Assembly: GCA_041600755.1 (NCBI GenBank)
Contig: JBFIJL010000001.1
Coordinates: 186,896-250,895, forward strand
Length of the DNA: 64,000 nucleotides
From: Candidatus Saccharimonadales bacterium
GTDB taxonomy: Bacteria > Patescibacteriota > Saccharimonadia > Saccharimonadales > JAXHNE01
Direction: 5' to 3'
Under the pieces are notes generated by a model. That model had not been told where the DNA came from. It saw nothing but the letters and a program-made list of their open reading frames with translations, and searched no databases. This document shows, one piece after another, positions 3,424 through 24,378 of the stretch. Position 1 is the first letter of the stretch. Each line of letters opens with the position of its first letter. A program made the translations under genes and the position numbers.

Positions 3424-4449
3424 TCATTTTTCAACTGGATGCTCATGACTAGCGTGATCACTGGCTGCGGCCCGAGATGCAACCGTGCGCATGTCGTCAT
3501 ATTGATCAAACTCATCTACAATTTGTGTTCCGAGTATTCGCTCAAAAACATCTTCTATAGTCAAAATTCCAACATATTCTTCAAAACCATTCACCACAAT
3601 AAAAAGATGTTGGTGAGTGCGAAGAATTGCACTGAGCGCCTGCTCTAACACCTGCTCTTCATGAATATATAAAACTTCTTTTTTCATAACTGATGAAACA
3701 GGACCGGATCGTTTTTTTTGCACCAAATCGCGAAGATATAAAATACCGACGATATTATCAGGGTTACCCTCGTACACTGGGAATCTTGAAAAACCTGTTT
3801 TGTGTAGCTCGTCCATAAAAACTGGCCCGATTGTGTCGCTAGCTTCAACCATGTGCACAGCACGGCGCGGCACAAGCACCTCGGCAATCGGCACACTTGC
3901 GTACGACAGGGCATGTGCGGCAATCTCTAGTGCACTAGCCGACACCTGGTTATCCGGTTGTTTCTGCTGCATATCAAGAAGATCAATTAAGTCATCTTGA
4001 TCATACAGGCCGGTATGTACATGAATCGGGAAAAGTTTTCTCATTTTATCCAACACAAACTGCACAGTCGGATAGATAATGCTCGCAAGCCGAGCGAGGA
4101 CTGGCGAAATTCGAGCAGCCATTGAAAATGTCAGGCTGGTGACCCTTCTGGCCGGCAACCATATAAAACCAAACCAAAGAATTGCAGCACTAAGCAGCGC
4201 GGCAAACCATGCGACAGTGGCACGAGAAACATAGACAAAGAATATAACGTGCGCCACAAGCACAAAACACTTAAGAATTAGTGATAGGCTCGGACCGTAC
4301 GCTGCGGAGCGGTATAGCAGCTTCGCAACTTCATCGCCATCCCTAGCGCGCTTCTTTAATTCACGCGCAGGAATGCTTTGATATGCACGATTCACAAGAA
4401 CTGAACTGACTGCAAAACTGGCAAGTAAGAGAACAATAAATAATGTCAT
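3424..4449 (-). CDS. CNNM/DUF21 transmembrane domain + CBS-pair protein (HlyC/CorC family, short form)
   Basis: 341 aa. N-terminal multi-TM region followed by two CBS-like segments (VMKKEVLYIHEEQVLEQAL..., VVNGFEEYVGILTIEDVFERI). The protein ends shortly after the CBS pair, so the usual CorC_HlyC C-terminal domain appears absent. Confidence 0.8.
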   Translation of the reverse strand: MTLFIVLLLASFAVSSVLVNRAYQSIPARELKKRARDGDEVAKLLYRSAAYGPSLSLILKCFVLVAHVIFFVYVSRATVAWFAALLSAAILWFGFIWLPARRVTSLTFSMAARISPVLARLASIIYPTVQFVLDKMRKLFPIHVHTGLYDQDDLIDLLDMQQKQPDNQVSASALEIAAHALSYASVPIAEVLVPRRAVHMVEASDTIGPVFMDELHKTGFSRFPVYEGNPDNIVGILYLRDLVQKKRSGPVSSVMKKEVLYIHEEQVLEQALSAILRTHQHLFIVVNGFEEYVGILTIEDVFERILGTQIVDEFDQYDDMRTVASRAAASDHASHEHPVEK

Positions 4450-5942: not shown

Positions 5943-6011
5943 GGTTTTATTTACCTTACGCTTATTGTACAATTAATCCAACTAAAATTAATAACAGAAA
6001 CAACTAAACAC

Positions 6012-7709
6012 ATGCATGGCAATATATTCACTGAACTCAGTCTCTTATTAACTATAGCTGTTGGTATTTCGCTAATCATGAAGGCGCTGCGTCAGCCAAT
6101 GATCGTTGGGCACATTCTGACCGGAATTTTAGTAGGGCCAGCGATTTTTGGATTTGTGCAGTCCCCTGAAACAATTGCCGACTTTGGTACATTTGGTATT
6201 GCGCTGTTGCTATTCGTCGTTGGATTAGGACTAAATCCTAAAGTCATCAAAGAAGTGGGTCGCGTTGCCCTACTAACTGGTTTCGGCCAGGTTATTTTCA
6301 CCTCTTTGATTGGGTTTGGAATGATTAGGCTGCTTGGCTATTCACCTATAGTGTCTCTTTATATTGCGGTGTCGTTAACTTTCTCGAGCACTATTATTAT
6401 CCTCAAACTGCTGAACGACAAGAAAGAGCAAAATAAGCTGCACGGCAAGATCTCGATTGGCTTCTTGCTTGTACAGGACGTCCTGGCCACATTCGCACTT
6501 GTTGTAGCTTCCGCCACTAGTGATGGCAACTTCAGCCCTGCAACACTAGGGTTCTTAGCACTGAAGGGATTTGGCCTAGGACTTGCAATTATGCTGATAT
6601 CAAAATATGTACTTAAACCTATGAACAACTTTCTGTCTCGCTCCCAGGAGCTATTGTTTCTGTTCGCGATAGCCTGGGGATTCGGTATTGGCACACTATT
6701 CTTCGAACTTGGCTTCTCGCTAGAAATTGGAGCACTTGTTGCTGGAGTGGCTCTGTCTACAATGACCTATGCGCAAGAAGTTAGCTCTCGCCTTCGACCC
6801 CTGCGTGATTTCTTTATAGTTATATTTTTTATAGCACTTGGTGCCGGTCTGGACATTAGTAGTGTTGGGTCAATAATCTGGCAAGCTATCGGGCTGTCGA
6901 TTTTCGTACTTGTCGGAAACCCGACAATTGTGATGATAATTATGGGCGTCTTGGGATACACTAAAAAAACTAGCTTTAAGGCGGGGCTTGCAGTTGCTCA
7001 GATCAGTGAATTTTCTTTAATTTTTATTCTCTTGGGGCGATCTAATGGACAAGTTGACGATCTGGCTGTTTCACTGGTCACCGTGGTTGGTATTATTACA
7101 ATTGCCGCCTCGTCATATATGATCACTTACTCTGATAGCCTATACGAAAGCTTTGAAAAATATCTATCATTATTCGAGCGTCGCAAGGTGAAGATGGACC
7201 AAGAATCCAGGAACGAATATGAGCTCATTTTGCTAGGTTATCAAAAGGGTGGCCACGAATTTGTTAAAGTATTTCAGCAGCTCAAAAAACGCTTTGTGGT
7301 CATAGACTACGATCCAGATGTGATTGACGTTCTTGAAAACAGAAAGGTTAACTATCTATACGGCGACGTAACCGATATCGAGATGCTTGAAGAAGCTGGA
7401 GTAGATACCGCCAAGCTTGTCGCTTGCACAGTTGGTGATTTCGAAACAAATAGCTTCATTGTCGCATTGCTAGAAAAACTCAATCCCTCTGCAGTGGTCA
7501 TCTGTCGAGCCGAAACGATACATGACGCCGAGAGACTATACGCTCAAGGCGCCAGCTATGTCGTGATGCCACACTTCGTTGGCAGCGAGCGAATGGGCTT
7601 ATTCCTTCACAAAAATGGCCTAAGCAAAGCTGAATTCAAGAAGCATAAAGCACTTCATCTAAAATTCATACAAGATCAATTAGCTACTGAGTCATCTGAC
7701 GAAGCATAA
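6012..7709 (+). CDS. cation:proton antiporter with C-terminal RCK/TrkA-N domain (Kef-like)
   Basis: ATG at 6012 (MHGNIFTELSLLL). About 12 TM Na+/H+-exchanger-type core, then a Rossmann-like ELILLGYQKGGHEF...VVIDYD segment. The upstream extension to 5901 overlaps the divergent gene and is rejected. Confidence 0.85.
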   Translation: MHGNIFTELSLLLTIAVGISLIMKALRQPMIVGHILTGILVGPAIFGFVQSPETIADFGTFGIALLLFVVGLGLNPKVIKEVGRVALLTGFGQVIFTSLIGFGMIRLLGYSPIVSLYIAVSLTFSSTIIILKLLNDKKEQNKLHGKISIGFLLVQDVLATFALVVASATSDGNFSPATLGFLALKGFGLGLAIMLISKYVLKPMNNFLSRSQELLFLFAIAWGFGIGTLFFELGFSLEIGALVAGVALSTMTYAQEVSSRLRPLRDFFIVIFFIALGAGLDISSVGSIIWQAIGLSIFVLVGNPTIVMIIMGVLGYTKKTSFKAGLAVAQISEFSLIFILLGRSNGQVDDLAVSLVTVVGIITIAASSYMITYSDSLYESFEKYLSLFERRKVKMDQESRNEYELILLGYQKGGHEFVKVFQQLKKRFVVIDYDPDVIDVLENRKVNYLYGDVTDIEMLEEAGVDTAKLVACTVGDFETNSFIVALLEKLNPSAVVICRAETIHDAERLYAQGASYVVMPHFVGSERMGLFLHKNGLSKAEFKKHKALHLKFIQDQLATESSDEA

Positions 7710-8296
7710 AGCCCCTGCTGAGAAATATAGGCTGAAACTTGAGGATCTAATGCTTGTGGGCTTTCGCGATTCTTTAACTGACTTCGTACTACCGAAGAGC
7801 TTACTCGCACCAGTGGACTTGGAATAAACATATGGTTAATCGGTTGGTTTCTGATCGAAGAAATGGCAGCAATCCTGGTTTTGGCCAGTTCTTCGTGTTT
7901 TCTAATCCCAATTATGAACGAAACACCTGTAAGCAGCTTATCGATATGTGGCCATTCGTGCATATGCGTCAACATATCGTCGCCCATGATTAACGTTAGC
8001 TCTGCACCCTCAAAACGTTTCTTGAGTATTGGTAGAGTCTCGTGAGGAGTAAAGCGTAGCTGGTCGATAATGATCGAACCTAGCTTGTCATCTTGTTCAA
8101 TTGCCAACTGCATCATTGTTTGGCGATGCTCAAATGCTCGCACACCTTGCTTGCGGCGGGGGCTTCGTTCGACCATAAAATACACACGATCAAGTGAGCC
8201 AGCATCTATGGCGTCACGTGCAAATGCAATGTGCCCGGTATGAACAGGGTCAAACGTTCCCGAAAAAATACCAATTTTCTGCAATTTGCTTTTCAT
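7676..8296 (-). CDS. nadD: nicotinate-nucleotide adenylyltransferase
   Basis: 206 aa. IGIFSGTFDPVHTGHIAFA (HxGH nucleotidyltransferase motif) and typical NadD length. Overlaps the convergent antiporter gene by 34 nt. Confidence 0.85.
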   Translation of the reverse strand: MKSKLQKIGIFSGTFDPVHTGHIAFARDAIDAGSLDRVYFMVERSPRRKQGVRAFEHRQTMMQLAIEQDDKLGSIIIDQLRFTPHETLPILKKRFEGAELTLIMGDDMLTHMHEWPHIDKLLTGVSFIIGIRKHEELAKTRIAAISSIRNQPINHMFIPSPLVRVSSSVVRSQLKNRESPQALDPQVSAYISQQGLYASSDDSVAN

Positions 8297-8320
8297 AACA
8301 CCAATACCTCATTGCTCGGC

Positions 8321-8479
8321 TTAAACATCCTGTGGAGCACCTTCACAGCATTTTGTCTTATAGTGGCACTGCGGACACTCGTAGTGACCATGAGCGGGAT
8401 ATAGCGGATAGTAGTCACATATCTCGCAAAAATACTCAATTGAACAAACTTTGCCATTTTCATCAGTAATTTCATTCAC
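8321..8479 (-). CDS. candidate small zinc-ribbon protein (52 codons, absent from the ORF track)
   Basis: Hand translation of the minus strand gives VNEITDENGKVCSIEYFCEICDYYPLYPAHGHYECPQCHYKTKCCEGAPQDV*. Cys pattern is C-x6-C-x2-C...C-x2-C...CC. The only in-frame start is GTG 8479. The frame is continuous with the upstream gene across its TAG (8489-8491). It competes with the tracked 60-aa ORF 8293..8475. Confidence 0.4.
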   Translation of the reverse strand: MNEITDENGKVCSIEYFCEICDYYPLYPAHGHYECPQCHYKTKCCEGAPQDV

Positions 8480-8488
8480 ACCTCCATT

Positions 8489-9736
8489 CTACCCTTTTCC
8501 ACCAGCTTTTTTATCACATCCACGACACAATCCGCATGGACCACACATTTTCTTTTTCTCTTTTTCTTTCGGTGGTGCTTGGCACGACACACAAAACCTA
8601 TAAGCATTAAAGCTGTAACTTTCTTCGCTGCTTGACTTGCTTCCAAATCCCAACGCTTCCAGAATTGATTTTTCTCCAGAATCAACCCCGGCGCCAAAAG
8701 ATGAGCCGCAGCCACTGAAAGTTTGACCGGCAGCTGCCGCAGCATGGCCAGCGCTCGTGAGAGCCTCGCTGAGTAATGTGTGCTGTACGACCAACGGCCC
8801 GGTAAGCATATTATCTCGGCCTGAATATGTATCAGAGGAATGTATCATTTCTGCGGTCGGGACTGAAAACTGTTGATTATTGTAACGCTGACTAAGCAGT
8901 GCTGCAAAATTGTACATCGATTGGTCGTTTATGGTTCCACGCAAAACTTCTTGAACTGCGTGTTTTACAATATCTGTTTGCTGCAGCACGAACTCATAGG
9001 TATTTTGCTTATTTTCTACGACTTCACGACCAGCGAAATAAATTCCTCCATCATTTTTATGTAACGTTCTGTCATAGACGCCAACCAGCTCTTCGGTCAG
9101 TTTATCGGCCGTCTTATCGGACTGCATGTGCATACGTTGACCCAACAACTCACCAGGTTTTGCATCCTCGCCAAAATGATCGTAGAGCGCCTCAAGTGCA
9201 GCTCGATTACTGCCATCGAGTGTCTGAGAATACATCTCTAAAGTATCTCCGTCTCTTCGAATGACTCGCAAAAATGTCTGCCTTCGCCTCACATTGTATC
9301 CGCCAACATCCACCGGGTAGTGCATCAGCTCATGCGGAAAATCCGAAACAACAATCATTGTGTTTGGGCCGTCTCCCTGCATCAATTCAAGCATCTCATG
9401 ATATTCGTCGAGCTCATGTGCACGGCGGCGTTTTTCAAAGGCAAGCTGGGGTTGTGATTTAATCAGTTCATCGGCATGAACCAATGCGTCATCGAATATA
9501 GCGCCAAGTGCCGACCCATCCTCTGCGTGCAACTCATTTGACGAAACATCATACCTATAACTAGTTGGCGTGCGCATCTGTCCGTCAAGAGCCTCTGCAG
9601 CCCATGTAACGAAGTCTTCACGAACCCGGTACTCTCTATCGAATGATTGACGATAGTCTTGGTTAATTTCAAGGCTTGGAATATCGAACCCAAAGTTCAG
9701 ATTATTTTGTGTTTCAATTCCAGCTGCGACGGCCAT
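8489..9736 (-). CDS. hypothetical protein with Cys-rich C-terminal tail (no family recognised)
   Basis: ATG at 9736 (MAVAAGIETQ...), purine-rich RBS AAGAAGGG 4 nt upstream. 415 aa, no TM or signal peptide. The tail is FCVSCQAPPKEKEKKKMCGPCGLCRGCDKK. Confidence 0.6.
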   Translation of the reverse strand: MAVAAGIETQNNLNFGFDIPSLEINQDYRQSFDREYRVREDFVTWAAEALDGQMRTPTSYRYDVSSNELHAEDGSALGAIFDDALVHADELIKSQPQLAFEKRRRAHELDEYHEMLELMQGDGPNTMIVVSDFPHELMHYPVDVGGYNVRRRQTFLRVIRRDGDTLEMYSQTLDGSNRAALEALYDHFGEDAKPGELLGQRMHMQSDKTADKLTEELVGVYDRTLHKNDGGIYFAGREVVENKQNTYEFVLQQTDIVKHAVQEVLRGTINDQSMYNFAALLSQRYNNQQFSVPTAEMIHSSDTYSGRDNMLTGPLVVQHTLLSEALTSAGHAAAAAGQTFSGCGSSFGAGVDSGEKSILEALGFGSKSSSEESYSFNAYRFCVSCQAPPKEKEKKKMCGPCGLCRGCDKKAGGKG

Positions 9737-9740
9737 GTTA

Positions 9741-9925
9741 CCCTTCTTGCTCGGTGAGCAAAAGAGCAACCGACCTTAGTGGGTGTACTGCTCCTGCTCG
9801 GGAGACTTTTGTTGCTGTATCGGACTTTTTAGCTATTACCTATGTAGGCAGGCTATTACCGTTGCGGCACAGTGAGGGAATTACACCCTACTTCCAGCAT
9901 TACTATGTTAATTACTCACCACTAT
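9741..9925 (-). promoter_or_regulatory. candidate cobalamin riboswitch (aptamer about 9811-9905, expression platform about 9741-9810)
   Basis: The minus-strand read is UGCUGGAAGUAGGGUGUAAUUCCCUCACUGUGCCGCAACGGUAA...AAAAAGUCCGAUACAGCAAC. This matches the remembered core GGGAAG..GGGUG.AAUCCC..C.C.G..CCGC(A/C)ACUGU plus a degenerate B12 box. UGCUG and CAGCA can pair as the box-closing helix. A hairpin at 9743-9764 covers the RBS. Confidence 0.55.
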
Positions 9926-9986
9926 ACTTCAAAATATACCCGCTACATATAGTATTTTTGTATACATTCGCTACACTAGAGTGACT

Positions 9987-10973
9987 ATGATTGAAATTAT
10001 TGATGAGAAATACATTATCGACACGGATCTATCGGATTTTCGTTCTGAAGAAGAAACAATTAATGGCGTCATGCAGCAAGCTGTTAGTGGTCATCAAAAT
10101 GAGCACGACCATTTTACGCCACTGGAATACAACCCAGAAGACTACCCTTTCCAACGTGCGGATTGCATAGGCATGATTGGTCGGGCCGCCACAGCTGACA
10201 CCTTCAAAGGGCTTGCACCTCTGATATTTCCAGCATTCAACGATGTGGTCGACAGAACTATTGATGAACGCGAGGATTTGCTTAATCACTGTGCAGATGT
10301 ACTAGAGCGTGATGATCTGCACGTACTTACCGACCACCGAGATGTAGTTGGAGTAGCTGTAGGCAGTTCACTGATTGCAGCCTCACTCTACACCTCTGGA
10401 AAAGTCTCTCATGACCACATAACTACATCAATTGCAGTCAGCACTATGCTAAAGAACACGGCAATACTTGGATTGCCAGCAGAAAATCTCTTAGTAGACG
10501 TATTCTCCACCACTATGTTTGTCGTTCCTTCATCAAACCCACAAAATAAGCTTCAATTGCCGGCAAACTACTCTAAAAACTTCAATAATGCCAGTCAGGC
10601 TCACACGCCAGAGCGTACCAAGAATGACCTAACGGCCGTTGCCCCAAGCGGAACTCGTGATATTCGCGTTCATCGTTCACTTCGCCCTGGGCACCCGAAA
10701 CCCGGCTACTACGTCGGGCCGCCATCCAACGGAACTATAGAAAAGTACATGACCAATGCTTATTGCCTAGATATGGGGATAGATCTCTCAAAAGAATCAG
10801 ACGGAGTCTATATCGGTGAGATATGGACGCCAAAAGGCAGCTCAGCTGCTCGACTAGCAATAATGGAACATATCGCTAATGGAATATCAGAAACTACTGG
10901 CGTCAAGAGCTACTTCGTCCCAGAACGAGACAAATTCAACGAGCTAAAGAAACATCTGAAAGAACAGTCTTAG
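9987..10973 (+). CDS. hypothetical protein (weak PlsC-type acyltransferase-like motifs)
   Basis: ATG at 9987 (MIEIIDEKY). VLTDHRDVVGV and VAPSGTRDIRV loosely resemble acyltransferase blocks I and III (NHxxxxD / FPEGTR). HX4D is not intact. Confidence 0.3.
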   Translation: MIEIIDEKYIIDTDLSDFRSEEETINGVMQQAVSGHQNEHDHFTPLEYNPEDYPFQRADCIGMIGRAATADTFKGLAPLIFPAFNDVVDRTIDEREDLLNHCADVLERDDLHVLTDHRDVVGVAVGSSLIAASLYTSGKVSHDHITTSIAVSTMLKNTAILGLPAENLLVDVFSTTMFVVPSSNPQNKLQLPANYSKNFNNASQAHTPERTKNDLTAVAPSGTRDIRVHRSLRPGHPKPGYYVGPPSNGTIEKYMTNAYCLDMGIDLSKESDGVYIGEIWTPKGSSAARLAIMEHIANGISETTGVKSYFVPERDKFNELKKHLKEQS

Positions 10974-11395
10974 TTAGCCGGCGTGGAGCTGTCTTCTTGA
11001 ATTGTAACGCTACTAACGTTCACTAGCTGCTTACTAGAAGGACGGTACAAAATTGCGAGCTTACTTTGCGCATAGATGAGTGTCACGTCACCATTTTCAG
11101 CATTTGCAAAAAACGGCTGATCGGTGAGTTTGCTCTTGTCGTTGACTGTAGCTACACTTGGTTCCTCGTTGGCGGGTAGTGCGTATAGCTCACCGACTTC
11201 TGCAACGTATCGGTTAACTTCTTCACGTGCTGCAGCATCGGGATCGGTCTTGAATTCTTCAAGTTTAGCTTGTGCCTCGTTGGCTTGGCTGCGAGCATCA
11301 CTGGCTGCCTTGCGTTCTCGAACATACAAAAATCCTAAAGCACCTACTGCGACAACCAAGACGGCTATCAAAACACTGGTTATAACTTTTTTCAT
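10970..11395 (-). CDS. hypothetical N-terminally anchored protein
   Basis: 141 aa. One N-terminal TM (VITSVLIAVLVVAVGALGFLYV), a charged helix, then a small beta-rich C-terminal domain. 4-nt convergent overlap with the previous gene. Confidence 0.55.
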   Translation of the reverse strand: MKKVITSVLIAVLVVAVGALGFLYVRERKAASDARSQANEAQAKLEEFKTDPDAAAREEVNRYVAEVGELYALPANEEPSVATVNDKSKLTDQPFFANAENGDVTLIYAQSKLAILYRPSSKQLVNVSSVTIQEDSSTPAN

Positions 11396-11457
11396 ATCTA
11401 TGGTTCCCTCTTTCGTTTCTTATGCTTACCTTATCTTACAAGTATGCTGAGGCACCG

Positions 11458-12279
11458 TCAACGAGTAACTACAAGAAGAAGTGCTAGTGAGGCAGCGCTG
11501 ACAAATCGGTAGTACGCAAATGGCCGGATACTGTAGCGCGATACGAATCCAATCAAAAATCGAATTGCCAGCATGCCACTTATAAATGCCGCCAAGAATC
11601 CAACCGCAAACATTGATGCGTTTGCACTAATCTCTGCTCGCGCCTCATTGCCTGCCAAGATTTTTAGTGATGCACCTGCAATAATCGGCAAAGCCATCAA
11701 AAATGAAAAACGCGTTGCTTCAACACGCTTCATACCCAAAAAAAGTCCCGCACTAATTGTCGCACCCGAACGAGACACGCCAGGAACAAGCGCACAGGCT
11801 TGAAGCAATCCGATCTTCACGGCGTCTACTCTAGTCAGATCAAGCATCTTAGTCTTATTCTTAACATCGTCGGCGTAATTTTCGGCTAACAGCATCACAC
11901 CACCAAACACAGCCAGCATCAAGACAACCACCCAGGGTGACCGCAAACTTGTGTCGACAATATCCTGCAAAAGCACTCCGACAATCACCGCGGGAATCGT
12001 AGCAATAGCCAGCATATATGCTAACTTCTTTTGTTTGTCATCGCCTTTGAAATATCCGGAAATTATCTCCCATATATCTCTCTGGAAGTACAAAAATACT
12101 GCCAACAGCGTTCCAACATGAAGTGCAATATCGAAGGCCAGCACACCTTCTTCCATGCCTAGCAACTGATGAAATAACACCAAGTGCCCCGAACTCGAAA
12201 CCGGAATAAACTCAGTAAGTCCCTGCACAATTCCAAGAAGTATCGCCGCAATCATGCCAGCATTATACATCGTAAGCAT
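11458..12279 (-). CDS. uppP: undecaprenyl-diphosphate phosphatase
   Basis: EFIPVSSSGHLVLF and PGVSRSGATI signature motifs. Start taken at ATG 12279; ATG 12270 and 12255 are also possible. Confidence 0.9.
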   Translation of the reverse strand: MLTMYNAGMIAAILLGIVQGLTEFIPVSSSGHLVLFHQLLGMEEGVLAFDIALHVGTLLAVFLYFQRDIWEIISGYFKGDDKQKKLAYMLAIATIPAVIVGVLLQDIVDTSLRSPWVVVLMLAVFGGVMLLAENYADDVKNKTKMLDLTRVDAVKIGLLQACALVPGVSRSGATISAGLFLGMKRVEATRFSFLMALPIIAGASLKILAGNEARAEISANASMFAVGFLAAFISGMLAIRFLIGFVSRYSIRPFAYYRFVSAASLALLLVVTR

Positions 12280-12321
12280 AGGTACTTTGCTTCGGCATCC
12301 ATTTTCTGGGAAGATACATAT

Positions 12322-13224
12322 ATGAAACAACCCCAAAACATTATAGAAGTTACAAACCTACACAAGAAATTCGGCACCTTCAGTGCCCTCGACGGACTCG
12401 ACTTATCTGTTGTCAAAGGCGAAGTTCACGGCTTCCTGGGGCCAAACGGTTCAGGAAAATCCACAACTATTCGCATCCTACTGGGACTATTAAAGAAATC
12501 TGAAGGAAATGTGACTGTGCTTGGCCAAAATCCATGGGATGACGCAGTCAAGATTCACAAAGACATCGCTTACGTTCCTGGCGATGTTGAGCTATGGCCA
12601 CAACTTACAGGTGGTGAAGTGATTGATATTCTTGGCGAGCTCAATGGTGGACTCAACGAAGCAAAGCGAAAAATTCTACTTGAAAGATTTCAACTTGATC
12701 CACGCAAGAAATTTCGTACATATTCCAAAGGAAATCGCCAAAAAGTCGCAATTGTCGCTGCCTTTTCGTCAAACGCCGAAGTCTACATACTCGATGAACC
12801 AACCTCTGGCCTTGATCCACTAATGGAGGCTGCATTTCAGACATGTGTTGAAGAGGTTAAGGAAGATGGCAAGACTGTTCTGTTGTCTAGTCATATACTG
12901 GCAGAAGTTGAAGCTCTTTGTGACCGTGTCACCATTATCAAGGATGGCAAGACGGTAGAAACTGGCACGCTCAGTGAACTGCAGCATCTCCACCATTCGG
13001 CAATCACTGTCCAGACCAAAAAACAGCTGCCTGACCTGGGCAAAATTAAAGGTGTGCATAACTTAAAGCTAATTGATAAAAACTCTGCAACATTTGAATT
13101 AGAGTCGGCTGCATTTGATGAAGTAATGAAAAAACTGAGCAATCTGGGTATCACAAAGCTTACAAGCCATCCACCAGCACTAGAAGAGCTATTTCTACGA
13201 CACTATCAAGCTGAGGGTAAATAA
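12322..13224 (+). CDS. ABC transporter ATP-binding protein (ABC-2/DrrA-like exporter)
   Basis: ATG at 12322. Walker A GPNGSGKST, signature YSKGNRQKV, Walker B VYILDEPTSGLD. Confidence 0.9.
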   Translation: MKQPQNIIEVTNLHKKFGTFSALDGLDLSVVKGEVHGFLGPNGSGKSTTIRILLGLLKKSEGNVTVLGQNPWDDAVKIHKDIAYVPGDVELWPQLTGGEVIDILGELNGGLNEAKRKILLERFQLDPRKKFRTYSKGNRQKVAIVAAFSSNAEVYILDEPTSGLDPLMEAAFQTCVEEVKEDGKTVLLSSHILAEVEALCDRVTIIKDGKTVETGTLSELQHLHHSAITVQTKKQLPDLGKIKGVHNLKLIDKNSATFELESAAFDEVMKKLSNLGITKLTSHPPALEELFLRHYQAEGK

Positions 13225-14859
13225 ATGAAGGAGTTCAAAGGAACACTTAGACTTCTCCGGCTCATTCTGCGCCTGGACCGAATCAAGCTAGGGTTGTGGG
13301 TTATTGGTATCTTGGTGATTGTCGCCACTAGCGCAGCTGCACTTAGCGACGTGTATGGCAACTATGAAGCACAAGTCCAATACGCCGCCACAACGGCCCC
13401 AAGTATAGCTGGGAGGGCGTTTGGTGGACTTGTGGACGGTCCTTCACTTGGATCGATCGCCATGGTTGAGCTTTTCAACTTCACTGCAGTTCTAATTGCA
13501 TTTATGAGCACAATGTTGGTCGTGCGTCATACACGAAAATATGAAGAACTTGGCACGAGCGAAATCATTGGTGCTGGCAGTGTTGGACGCTTTTCTGGGC
13601 TAGCTGCTGCTTTGTTAGCAGCTCTTCTTACGAATATTGTACTGACGATTGGCATGCTGGTAATTCTCAGCACCACCGAGCTAGAAATTACTGGAGCGAT
13701 CGGATTCAGTCTTGCGCTTGGGGCTGTCGGTATACTGTTTGCTGGCTTGGCTGCTGTTTCTGCCCAGCTTGCAGAGTCTGGACGTGGCGCTAATAGTATC
13801 GCTGGTGGTTCAATTGGTGTCGCCTTTGCACTCCGCGCAATTGGCGATGGATTTGGAAAGGTTGGAGTCGATGGCTTAAGCGCCACCCCGATATGGCCAA
13901 CTTGGCTATCTCCTATTGGTATTGCGTATCAAATTTCACCGTTTACCAGTCAGCGCTGGTGGCTTTTTGCAGTTTTGGCGACGCTTATTGCAAGTAGCGT
14001 ACTGGCAGCGTTCTTTATCCTTGGCCGAAGAGATGTTGGACTTGGCCTGCTTCCAAGCCGTCCAGGACCAGCCCGCGCCAAGCAAAATCTACTTCGTTCT
14101 TGGGGGCTTAGTTGGCGCCTACAGCGCGGAACGCTGATTGGCTGGAGTGTTGGGTTTTTGTTGTTTGGTTTAATTATTGGAGGTATGGCACACGAATTTT
14201 CCGACCTGCTTGCTAGCAATCCCGAAGCCAGTGAGGCGCTAGCAGCATTCGGCGGAAGCAACACCAGCATTACTGATGTTTTTTTTGGCGTAACCTTTAG
14301 CTTTGCAGGCATTATTGCAGCGGGCTATGGTGTTCAGTCAATTCTAAGAATTCGTAGCGAAGAAGCCAGTGGACATGTCGAACCTCTACTCGCAACCTCG
14401 TTAAGTCGTGGAAAATGGCTAATCTCTCATATTGGGCTATCGTTTTTGGGGTCTCTATTGCTGCTGGTGGTAGTTGGCACGTCAAGTGCCGTTGTGCATG
14501 TATTTGCATCTGGGGCAGCCTGGAGCGAAGTTCCACGCCTGCTAATTGCAGCACTCAATCAAGCACCAGCCGTACTTGCATTCAGTGGTTTTGTTGCCTT
14601 CATAGTAGCCGCTACGCCACGTTTTGCTGCTTCGATTTCCTGGGCGGCATTCATTGGCAGCTTTATGCTTCTTCAACTTGCGACACTGTTGCGCCTCCCA
14701 GAATGGGTAGTCAATGTATCCCCTTTTACACATGCAGGTGCAGCACCATCCCAACCCGCAGCACTACAAAGCTTAGTAGTGTTATCGATTTTTGCTGGCT
14801 GTTTTACGCTTGCAAGTTTTGTGAGTTTCTGGCGCCGCGATATTAGCTCGAACGCTTAA
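13225..14859 (+). CDS. ABC-2 type exporter permease (12-TM fused form)
   Basis: 544 aa polytopic protein immediately after the ATPase (TAA then ATG). Composition and length are typical of fused ABC-2 permeases. Confidence 0.75.
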   Translation: MKEFKGTLRLLRLILRLDRIKLGLWVIGILVIVATSAAALSDVYGNYEAQVQYAATTAPSIAGRAFGGLVDGPSLGSIAMVELFNFTAVLIAFMSTMLVVRHTRKYEELGTSEIIGAGSVGRFSGLAAALLAALLTNIVLTIGMLVILSTTELEITGAIGFSLALGAVGILFAGLAAVSAQLAESGRGANSIAGGSIGVAFALRAIGDGFGKVGVDGLSATPIWPTWLSPIGIAYQISPFTSQRWWLFAVLATLIASSVLAAFFILGRRDVGLGLLPSRPGPARAKQNLLRSWGLSWRLQRGTLIGWSVGFLLFGLIIGGMAHEFSDLLASNPEASEALAAFGGSNTSITDVFFGVTFSFAGIIAAGYGVQSILRIRSEEASGHVEPLLATSLSRGKWLISHIGLSFLGSLLLLVVVGTSSAVVHVFASGAAWSEVPRLLIAALNQAPAVLAFSGFVAFIVAATPRFAASISWAAFIGSFMLLQLATLLRLPEWVVNVSPFTHAGAAPSQPAALQSLVVLSIFAGCFTLASFVSFWRRDISSNA

Positions 14860-22806: not shown

Positions 22807-23829
<1,023 letters not shown>

Positions 23830-24378
23830 GTGTCCTGGAAGAAGCTTAGCTCAAAAATTATCTATAAGAATAAATGGTTCTACGTAAGTGAAGATCAAAC
23901 GCTTAACTCCCAAAATAAACCCACTACCTATAGTACATTTACCATTACCGACGACATCGTATATGTGGCGGCCGTAGACCAGGATAAAAAGGTACACCTT
24001 GTAGAGCAGTATCGTTATCCAATACAGGAGAATTCATGGGAGCTAGTTGCCGGACACACAGATAATGACGAGCCTGTTGAAGCCGCAAAACGTGAGCTTT
24101 TAGAAGAGGCGGGCATCGAGGCCGCAAATTACACAAAACTAGGCAGGTACTACATCGACAAAGGGCTGTCTGGATCTGGCTATACGCTTTACTTAGCCAC
24201 AGAGCTCAGTAAAGTAACCGATGAACTTGATCAAGAAGATGGCATAATTCAGACCAAAAAGTTCACAGAAGATGAAATAAACACAATGGTCGCCAATAAC
24301 ACATTAAAGGATGCCCACACTATCGCAGCACTATATGTGGTTTTTGAGCACTTACGCAAAGGAGAGGACAATGAATAA
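23830..24378 (+). CDS. NUDIX hydrolase
   Basis: Nudix box GHTDNDEPVEAAKRELLEEAGIEA. GTG start directly after the rfbB stop; overlaps the rfbC start by 8 nt. Confidence 0.85.
   Translation: MSWKKLSSKIIYKNKWFYVSEDQTLNSQNKPTTYSTFTITDDIVYVAAVDQDKKVHLVEQYRYPIQENSWELVAGHTDNDEPVEAAKRELLEEAGIEAANYTKLGRYYIDKGLSGSGYTLYLATELSKVTDELDQEDGIIQTKKFTEDEINTMVANNTLKDAHTIAALYVVFEHLRKGEDNE

Follow-up and report, generated by a model that had tools for sequence, protein, structure and literature searches.

The window analysed here is a stretch of 64,000 nucleotides (nt) from Candidatus Saccharimonadales bacterium (contig JBFIJL010000001.1, positions 186,896 to 250,895), whose minus strand carries at 8479..8321 a cysteine-rich open frame directly behind the stop codon of a gene for a protein of 415 amino acids (aa). 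We are highly confident that this frame is a real, separate small gene that annotation missed in this genome, encoding a protein of about 52 residues conserved in Saccharibacteria. It joins, as a new and unannotated member, an existing family of hypothetical proteins that has been neither named nor studied. In other words, this is an ordinary annotation gap and not a case of recoding, gene fission or overlapping genes. For the small gene, our analysis establishes that the frame codes, that the family is conserved, that the gene is independent and that its synteny holds.

The upstream gene (8489..9736, minus strand) starts at ATG 9736 and, as read directly from the sequence, ends in ...CGPCGLCRGCDKKAGGKG (...CDKKAGGKG) before its stop, TAG 8491-8489. 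Past this TAG the same frame reads NGGVNEITDENGKVCSIEYFCEICDYYPLYPAHGHYECPQCHYKTKCCEGAPQDV, that is 55 sense codons including seven for cysteine, and is closed by TAA 8323-8321. The sole canonical in-frame start within it is GTG 8479-8477, which gives the 52-aa product MNEITDENGKVCSIEYFCEICDYYPLYPAHGHYECPQCHYKTKCCEGAPQDV (8321..8479, minus strand). Between the upstream TAG and this GTG lies a 9-nt spacer, AATGGAGGT (8480..8488), containing GGAGG at 8485-8481; this motif is 1 nt ahead of the GTG and 5 nt ahead of an out-of-frame ATG at 8475-8473. The frame continuity past the TAG, the seven cysteines, the TAA and the single GTG start with its poor Shine-Dalgarno spacing had all been pointed out in an initial annotation, and the coordinates proved correct. 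Downstream on the same strand, 24 nt separate the small gene from the ATG of nadD (7676..8296), the gene for nicotinate-nucleotide adenylyltransferase, identified by TIGR00482 with an E value of 1.7e-34, beyond the curated cut-off. Neither the 52-aa product of this genome nor the 60-aa product of a competing frame discussed below is present in a collection of 15 billion proteins, in which the 415-aa protein is found, so the small open reading frame (ORF) has evidently remained uncalled in this genome. Gene callers probably passed over it because of its GTG start and its small size.

At the G+C content of the window, 43.5%, an open frame of 55 codons has a chance of about 4%, as computed from base composition; the real proof that the Cys-rich frame codes is its conservation. 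A search with the 55-residue peptide returned 11 standalone homologues of 51-67 aa that are 67-84% identical to it; the first residue is Met in ten of them and an annotated Val in the remaining one. When one genome per species was scanned, 40 loci came up, and 29 of these (L007-L035) are from Saccharibacteria and contain the small gene. In a profile search of 5.8 billion proteins, 270 clusters (at 90% identity) were matched at E <= 0.001, and wherever organism names were given for small-family matches they were all Saccharimonadales or Saccharibacteria. An exhaustive search with a hidden Markov model (HMM) across 1.84 billion cluster representatives matched 26 clusters, with small-family members of 45-119 aa; a 532-aa match was set aside as an unrelated repeat protein. 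The typical size in the family is 45-70 aa, and members such as P0160, P0177 and P0196 bear the NCBI label 'hypothetical protein'. The family has neither a Pfam nor an NCBIfam model, and literature searches found no paper on it. Two long members, P0134 and P0152, have 119 aa each: the former carries an extension of about 65 residues at the N-terminus before an intact core, and in the latter about 60 extra residues split the ribbon between its first CxxC knuckle and HxH. These two are either real or artefacts of assembly or annotation.

The family is defined by the motif C-x2-C-x8-H-x-H-x2-C-x2-C-x5-C-C-E-G, in which six cysteines and two histidines are invariant or nearly so. The window protein carries the full motif in register with our alignments A2 and A3, at C18, C21, H30, H32, C35, C38, C44, C45, E46 and G47. 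Across the whole family, divergent members included, C18, C21, H32, C35, C38, C44, C45 and E46 are invariant, and P25, H30, T42 and G47 nearly so. Among close members invariance extends to C18, C21, Y24, P25, H30, G31, H32, C35, C38, C44, C45, E46 and G47, and the core of the closer members reads FC[DE]xCGxYP[IL]xPVHGH[FY]xCPxCxxxTKCCEG. The HMM built from A3 matches the window protein with an E value of 1.4e-25, a score that is partly circular since A3 includes the window sequence among its rows; the independent support for membership is therefore the 67-84% identity to the homologues.

The genome scan also gave matches in other phyla. One of them, L038 from an Actinomycetota metagenome-assembled genome (MAG), reads CGECG...PIHGHYECPACGWRDSCCF, with the pattern CxxC...PIHGHYECPxC...SCC, and to judge by this pattern it may be a true member outside Saccharibacteria. 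Matches in Bryobacteraceae/Acidobacteria MAGs (L036-L037, L039-L046) were set aside: they share only WCxxMHxxPMWPIHGHYECRTCGR, that is the PxHGHYEC stretch, and lack CCEG. Their sequences probably represent a different family, and some of these matches form the N-terminal part of larger proteins, about 360 aa long.

The Cys-rich frame shows the marks of selection expected of a coding frame. Pairwise comparison of 33 distinct core sequences gives on average 0.137 differences per site at codon position 1, 0.148 at position 2 and 0.574 at position 3, so that position 3 varies about four times as much as the other two, and the codon differences in this frame comprise 6163 synonymous and 3728 nonsynonymous changes. 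Both the excess at position 3 and the surplus of synonymous changes indicate clear purifying selection. The initial annotation was right that the frame codes and that it is zinc-ribbon-like.

Competing with it is the +1 frame, in which ATG 8475 opens an ORF of 60 aa (8293..8475, minus strand). The possibility that this ORF is the real product, or that both frames are translated in genuine dual coding, draws on its translation signals: GGAGG stands 5 nt before its ATG, and its TGA overlaps the nadD start as ATGA, the classic layout of translational coupling. Nonetheless, we find it very unlikely. The +1 frame is interrupted by stops in 17 of the 33 relatives, about half of them, and the codon position that varies is position 3 of the Cys-rich frame. 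A tblastn search finds 56 loci for the 52-aa product, at up to 84% identity, but only six for the 60-aa product, at 45-54%, and so few and weak matches of the latter are the pattern expected of the shadow of a conserved overlapping frame. Its lone Pfam match, to TubZ_C_3, is below threshold (16.9 bits against a cut-off of 27). A slippery heptamer that would allow a -1 shift from the frame of ATG 8475 into the Cys-rich frame was not seen by eye. We therefore reject the 60-aa ORF as a gene and regard it as a shadow frame of the small gene, in agreement with the initial impression that its product does not look like a protein; comparing the two frames across relatives, as had been proposed, favoured the Cys-rich frame. 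Another ORF, of 89 aa (8476-8745, minus strand), lies out of frame over the 3' end of the 415-aa gene and ends in a TGA that shares bases with the small gene's GTG (GTGA). This ORF is rich in lysine and arginine, of low complexity and probably spurious.

If the frame codes, it could still be a severed part of the gene in front of it. The initial annotation had raised the option of a single gene that a sequencing error or a recent nonsense mutation had cut in two; a gene of about 471 codons would then be broken at 8489-8491, and the Cys-rich frame would be its lost C-terminal domain. The two frames are indeed continuous, with the TAG alone between them, and the upstream tail and the extension are both rich in cysteine. 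The homologues of the 415-aa protein, whose exact sequence is in the collection as P0001, tell against it. A search with the fused 471-residue query, the 415-aa protein plus the extension, yielded 133 homologues of the 415-aa part; the alignments of the 120 listed ones cover 62-88% of the query, none enters the extension, and their tails lack the motif of the small protein. About 20 orthologues terminate at the very same residue, as ...CGPCGLCRxCDKKxGGKG followed by a stop, and in alignment A4 of these orthologues G412, G413, K414 and G415 are invariant and terminal. The search for fused orthologues with a sense codon in place of the TAG, which the initial annotation had recommended, thus found none that extends past GGKG. 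Conversely, the small domain is always a standalone gene with its own start, and among the 1.84 billion representatives it occurs in no protein longer than 119 aa and in no fusion to the large protein. A broken gene is accordingly an extremely improbable explanation, and by the evidence of the aligned orthologues TAG 8491-8489 is the natural end of the upstream gene.

The upstream protein belongs to a family specific to Saccharibacteria, without a Pfam match. Since its orthologues end at the same GGKG, its tail Cys cluster (CxxC-x12-CxxCxxCxxC) is a normal and complete C-terminal module of the 415-aa family and not a fragment continuing downstream. Other members have quite different Cys-rich tails, none of which resembles the downstream peptide. 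Within the family (P0001-P0120) we noticed at least four unrelated Cys-rich C-terminal tails, of the GGKG, ...KCKTCGISVKC, ...SGSCGCSKKR and ...CRIDxCPTRPGKTKV... types, which are apparently interchangeable, while the body of these proteins diverges quickly. The lone NCBIfam match of the 415-aa protein is meaningless (WcaE, 13.6 bits against a cut-off of 369), and a PDB profile search with the family found no relative.

Two intact genes in one frame could be linked by programmed or leaky readthrough of the TAG, through a suppressor tRNA or the codon context, producing a minor 471-aa fusion beside the two separate proteins; long and short isoforms of this kind had also been among the initial suggestions. 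The linker is just three codons long and in frame, and in three relatives the small gene likewise stands in frame behind the upstream stop (L064 and L008 behind TAG, L069 behind TAA). However, each of these three has its own ATG (in L008 as TAG-ATG), in L064 preceded by AAAGGAG, and the frame relation is not conserved: in seven further abutting pairs of large and small genes (L049, L050, L055, L080, L084, L085 and L087) the two are out of frame. Behind a divergent large gene, or behind a member of the ZR67 family described below, the small gene is seen in all of frames 0, 1 and 2, with gaps of -41 to +33 nt. Same-strand neighbouring genes share a frame one time in three, and the in-frame share among the relatives is close to this chance expectation. 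TAG is moreover the commonest stop of the window ORFs of at least 200 codons (18 of 49), and there is no tRNA gene in the window and no Rfam element in 6000-12000. We give readthrough only a very slim chance. Known cases of programmed readthrough, or of split or fused genes, resemble this locus in having an in-frame ORF behind a single stop codon; they differ in that here there is neither a conserved frame relation nor a fused orthologue, and that TAG is a normal and the most frequent stop.

The frame that the small gene shares with the upstream gene is thus accidental. Behind four other long ORFs of the window (at least 200 codons, all ended by TAA), the same frame is open again immediately past the stop, for 182-544 codons. 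Two of these are abutting pairs on the plus strand with only the stop codon between them, 12184..13224/13225..14859 and 22828..23829/23830..24378. Such pairs show that in this compact genome a frame often stays open past a stop codon. The weight that the initial annotation had placed on frame continuity was therefore misplaced, and of the four explanations it offered for the Cys-rich frame, a sequencing error or nonsense mutation, readthrough and dual coding fall away, whereas an independent GTG-initiated mini-protein stands, given the standalone homologues and the ATG of their own that 39 of 40 family genes possess.

What the small protein looks like can be suggested from its residue pattern and from weak similarities. 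Its core would be a Cys4 (C4) zinc ribbon, C18-x2-C21 ... C35-x2-C38. The protein could hold two metal ions (Zn being the likeliest), with the four ribbon cysteines as ligands of the first and H30, H32 and C44-C45 as ligands of the second. A PDB profile search matched the eL43/L37a zinc ribbon with an E value of about 1e-3, aligned over both CxxC knuckles. AlphaFold2 run on 103 sequences gave a mean predicted local distance difference test (pLDDT) score of 66.8, rising to about 82 over residues 20-40, with a beta-hairpin at 27-34; the run on an alignment of 12 sequences (pLDDT 56) was unusable. A Foldseek search of this model against the PDB returned a list consisting almost entirely of zinc ribbons, including all the top matches, at a best E value of 0.74. 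Against Pfam, the 52-aa product has two sub-threshold matches, and against NCBIfam none. The 103 family members likewise have only sub-threshold matches to generic zinc ribbons (HypA, YjdM, the TFIIB ribbon and others).

Compared with the C4 zinc ribbons of eL43/L37a, PhnA/YjdM and the C-terminal parts of RPB9/TFIIS, the small family shares a pair of CxxC knuckles that are separated by 13 residues and flank a predicted beta-hairpin. The matches are weak, with Foldseek E values of 0.74 or more and every Pfam match below threshold, and the small family has in addition an invariant HxH and, at its C-terminus, CCEG, neither of which is a feature of ordinary ribbons. These additions suggest a second metal site, and it is on this pattern that we place the putative H30/H32/C44/C45 site. 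Nothing in the comparison points to ribosome or nucleic-acid binding by the small family. With the hydrogenase nickel metallochaperone HypA/HybF, the small family has in common a CxxC...CxxC zinc site. HypA has about 113 aa and an N-terminal Ni-binding domain, for which the small-family proteins of 45-70 aa are too short. HypA matches occur in 22 of the 103 members, all of them sub-threshold, and the window protein has none. The name HypA/HybF that a Joint Genome Institute (JGI) pipeline gives to some members is therefore an over-annotation, the best E value (0.016) falling short of the Pfam threshold. The closest relatives of the window gene are in the unnamed Saccharibacteria/Saccharimonadales family itself, in which they have the same length, the same invariant pattern and the same spot directly upstream of nadD; the window copy differs in its GTG start and in being uncalled by gene finders.

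The genomic setting is conserved as well. On one strand, a gene for the large Cys-tailed protein is followed by optional small Cys-rich genes and then by nadD. In the first set of 35 Saccharibacteria loci, nadD lies downstream of the small gene in 29 and within about 150 nt in 24, sometimes overlapping it. Four variants of the cluster occur: the large gene followed directly by nadD, which is the most frequent among 45 metagenome loci; the large gene, the small gene and nadD, as in the window; the large gene, ZR67 and nadD; and the large gene, ZR67, the small gene and nadD. On the minus strand of the window we found no terminator-like or promoter-like site between the 415-aa gene, the small gene and nadD, which makes co-transcription likely; the small gene would probably be transcribed together with the large Cys-tailed protein gene and nadD. 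Proximity further suggests that the small protein works with the large protein or with nadD.

ZR67 is a second family, of Cys-rich proteins of 63-68 aa with the pattern C-x3-C ... CVTCPFCKxxVxAxLTxxTIxCPxCKVxVxR and no Pfam match; it is absent from the window. In many Saccharibacteria it follows the large Cys-tailed gene and precedes nadD or the CCEG gene, for example at L001:4810-5004, L013:3813-4004, L018:3771-3974, L025-L030 (~3750-3990), L057, L061, L065 and L067. A divergent subgroup of the small family (L031-L035, ~3950-4105), whose members end in ...KTKCCEGGVC, has no nadD nearby. At L032, the small gene overlaps the end of a regulator gene by 4 nt.

Several observations weigh against our interpretation of the small gene and its function. 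The window copy is the sole one of 40 family genes without an ATG, and the Shine-Dalgarno geometry of GTG 8479 is poor: the GGAGG is 1 nt away from it, and ideally spaced, at 5 nt, for the out-of-frame ATG 8475. Given this geometry, little protein may be made from the GTG, or its use may depend on coupling. As to function, we infer metal binding and the assignment of the second site from the residue pattern alone, the structure model is moderately confident (the mean pLDDT given above), and no fold match is significant. The surroundings are not uniform either: most clusters of the large gene and nadD lack the small gene, and in L032 and L033, the two loci of the divergent subgroup that were examined, the small gene follows rsmA (RrnaAD) and a winged-helix regulator of the MarR/ArsR type. 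The absence of the small gene from most of the clusters and the placing of the subgroup elsewhere mean that neither neighbour is an obligate partner.

The missing ATG raises a further alternative, namely that an assembly indel hides it: a base missing between 8475 and about 8447 would join ATG 8475 to the Cys-rich frame, giving MKLLMK(N)GKVCS.... This would restore to the one exception among 40 the in-frame start that the others have, with an ideally spaced Shine-Dalgarno sequence, and an A4 run lies in between. The N-termini speak for the GTG instead. Read from the GTG, the protein begins MNEITDENGKVCS..., a polar and acidic N-terminus (NEITDENGK) as in all relatives, and TDENGKVCSIEYFC of the window protein parallels TDEKVCSIEYFC of P0129 (...TDEKVCS). 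Residues 2-7 in this reading (NEITDE) have a hydropathy of -1.7, where the family averages -1.81 +/- 1.11; KLLMKM, read from ATG 8475, comes to +0.6 and exceeds the family maximum of 0.57. A hidden ATG thus seems highly improbable to us, and the GTG remains the start we favour.

Translation would accordingly begin at GTG 8479, 9 nt past the upstream TAG, and this distance makes termination-reinitiation coupling plausible; a weak upstream AAGGG or the abutting GGAGG might serve in its place. In the other 39 of the 40 distinct complete family genes, an in-frame ATG stands a few codons past an in-frame stop. Some ribosomes may also start at ATG 8475, yielding a non-conserved, lineage-specific peptide. 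An ATT at 8470 was considered as a start and judged unlikely, and statistics of Shine-Dalgarno spacing from the window were too noisy for a usable optimum.

It is tempting to speculate further that the CCEG mini-protein is a previously unrecognised metalloprotein with two metal sites (Cys4 and His2Cys2) that acts as a partner or regulator of its module, with a trace of fused isoform arising here through the in-frame TAG; we regard this as rather unlikely. Should it be true, the module would consist of nadD, a large protein that evolves fast and carries interchangeable Cys-rich tails, and, as an optional component, a second zinc ribbon of 65 aa; the CCEG mini-protein could for example link NAD synthesis in these reduced epibionts to their zinc or redox status. 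Leaving that aside, the analysis adds one real gene to the annotation of this genome, and it illustrates that, where genes are tightly packed, a frame that stays open past a stop says little about readthrough. It also draws attention to an uncharacterised family whose Cys6His2 signature is unusually rigid and which has so far been found almost only in Saccharibacteria, there in a variable Cys-rich mini-cluster beside nadD. The finding reveals no surprising mechanism; the family is a reasonable candidate for small-protein studies in the reduced genomes of candidate phyla radiation (CPR) epibionts.

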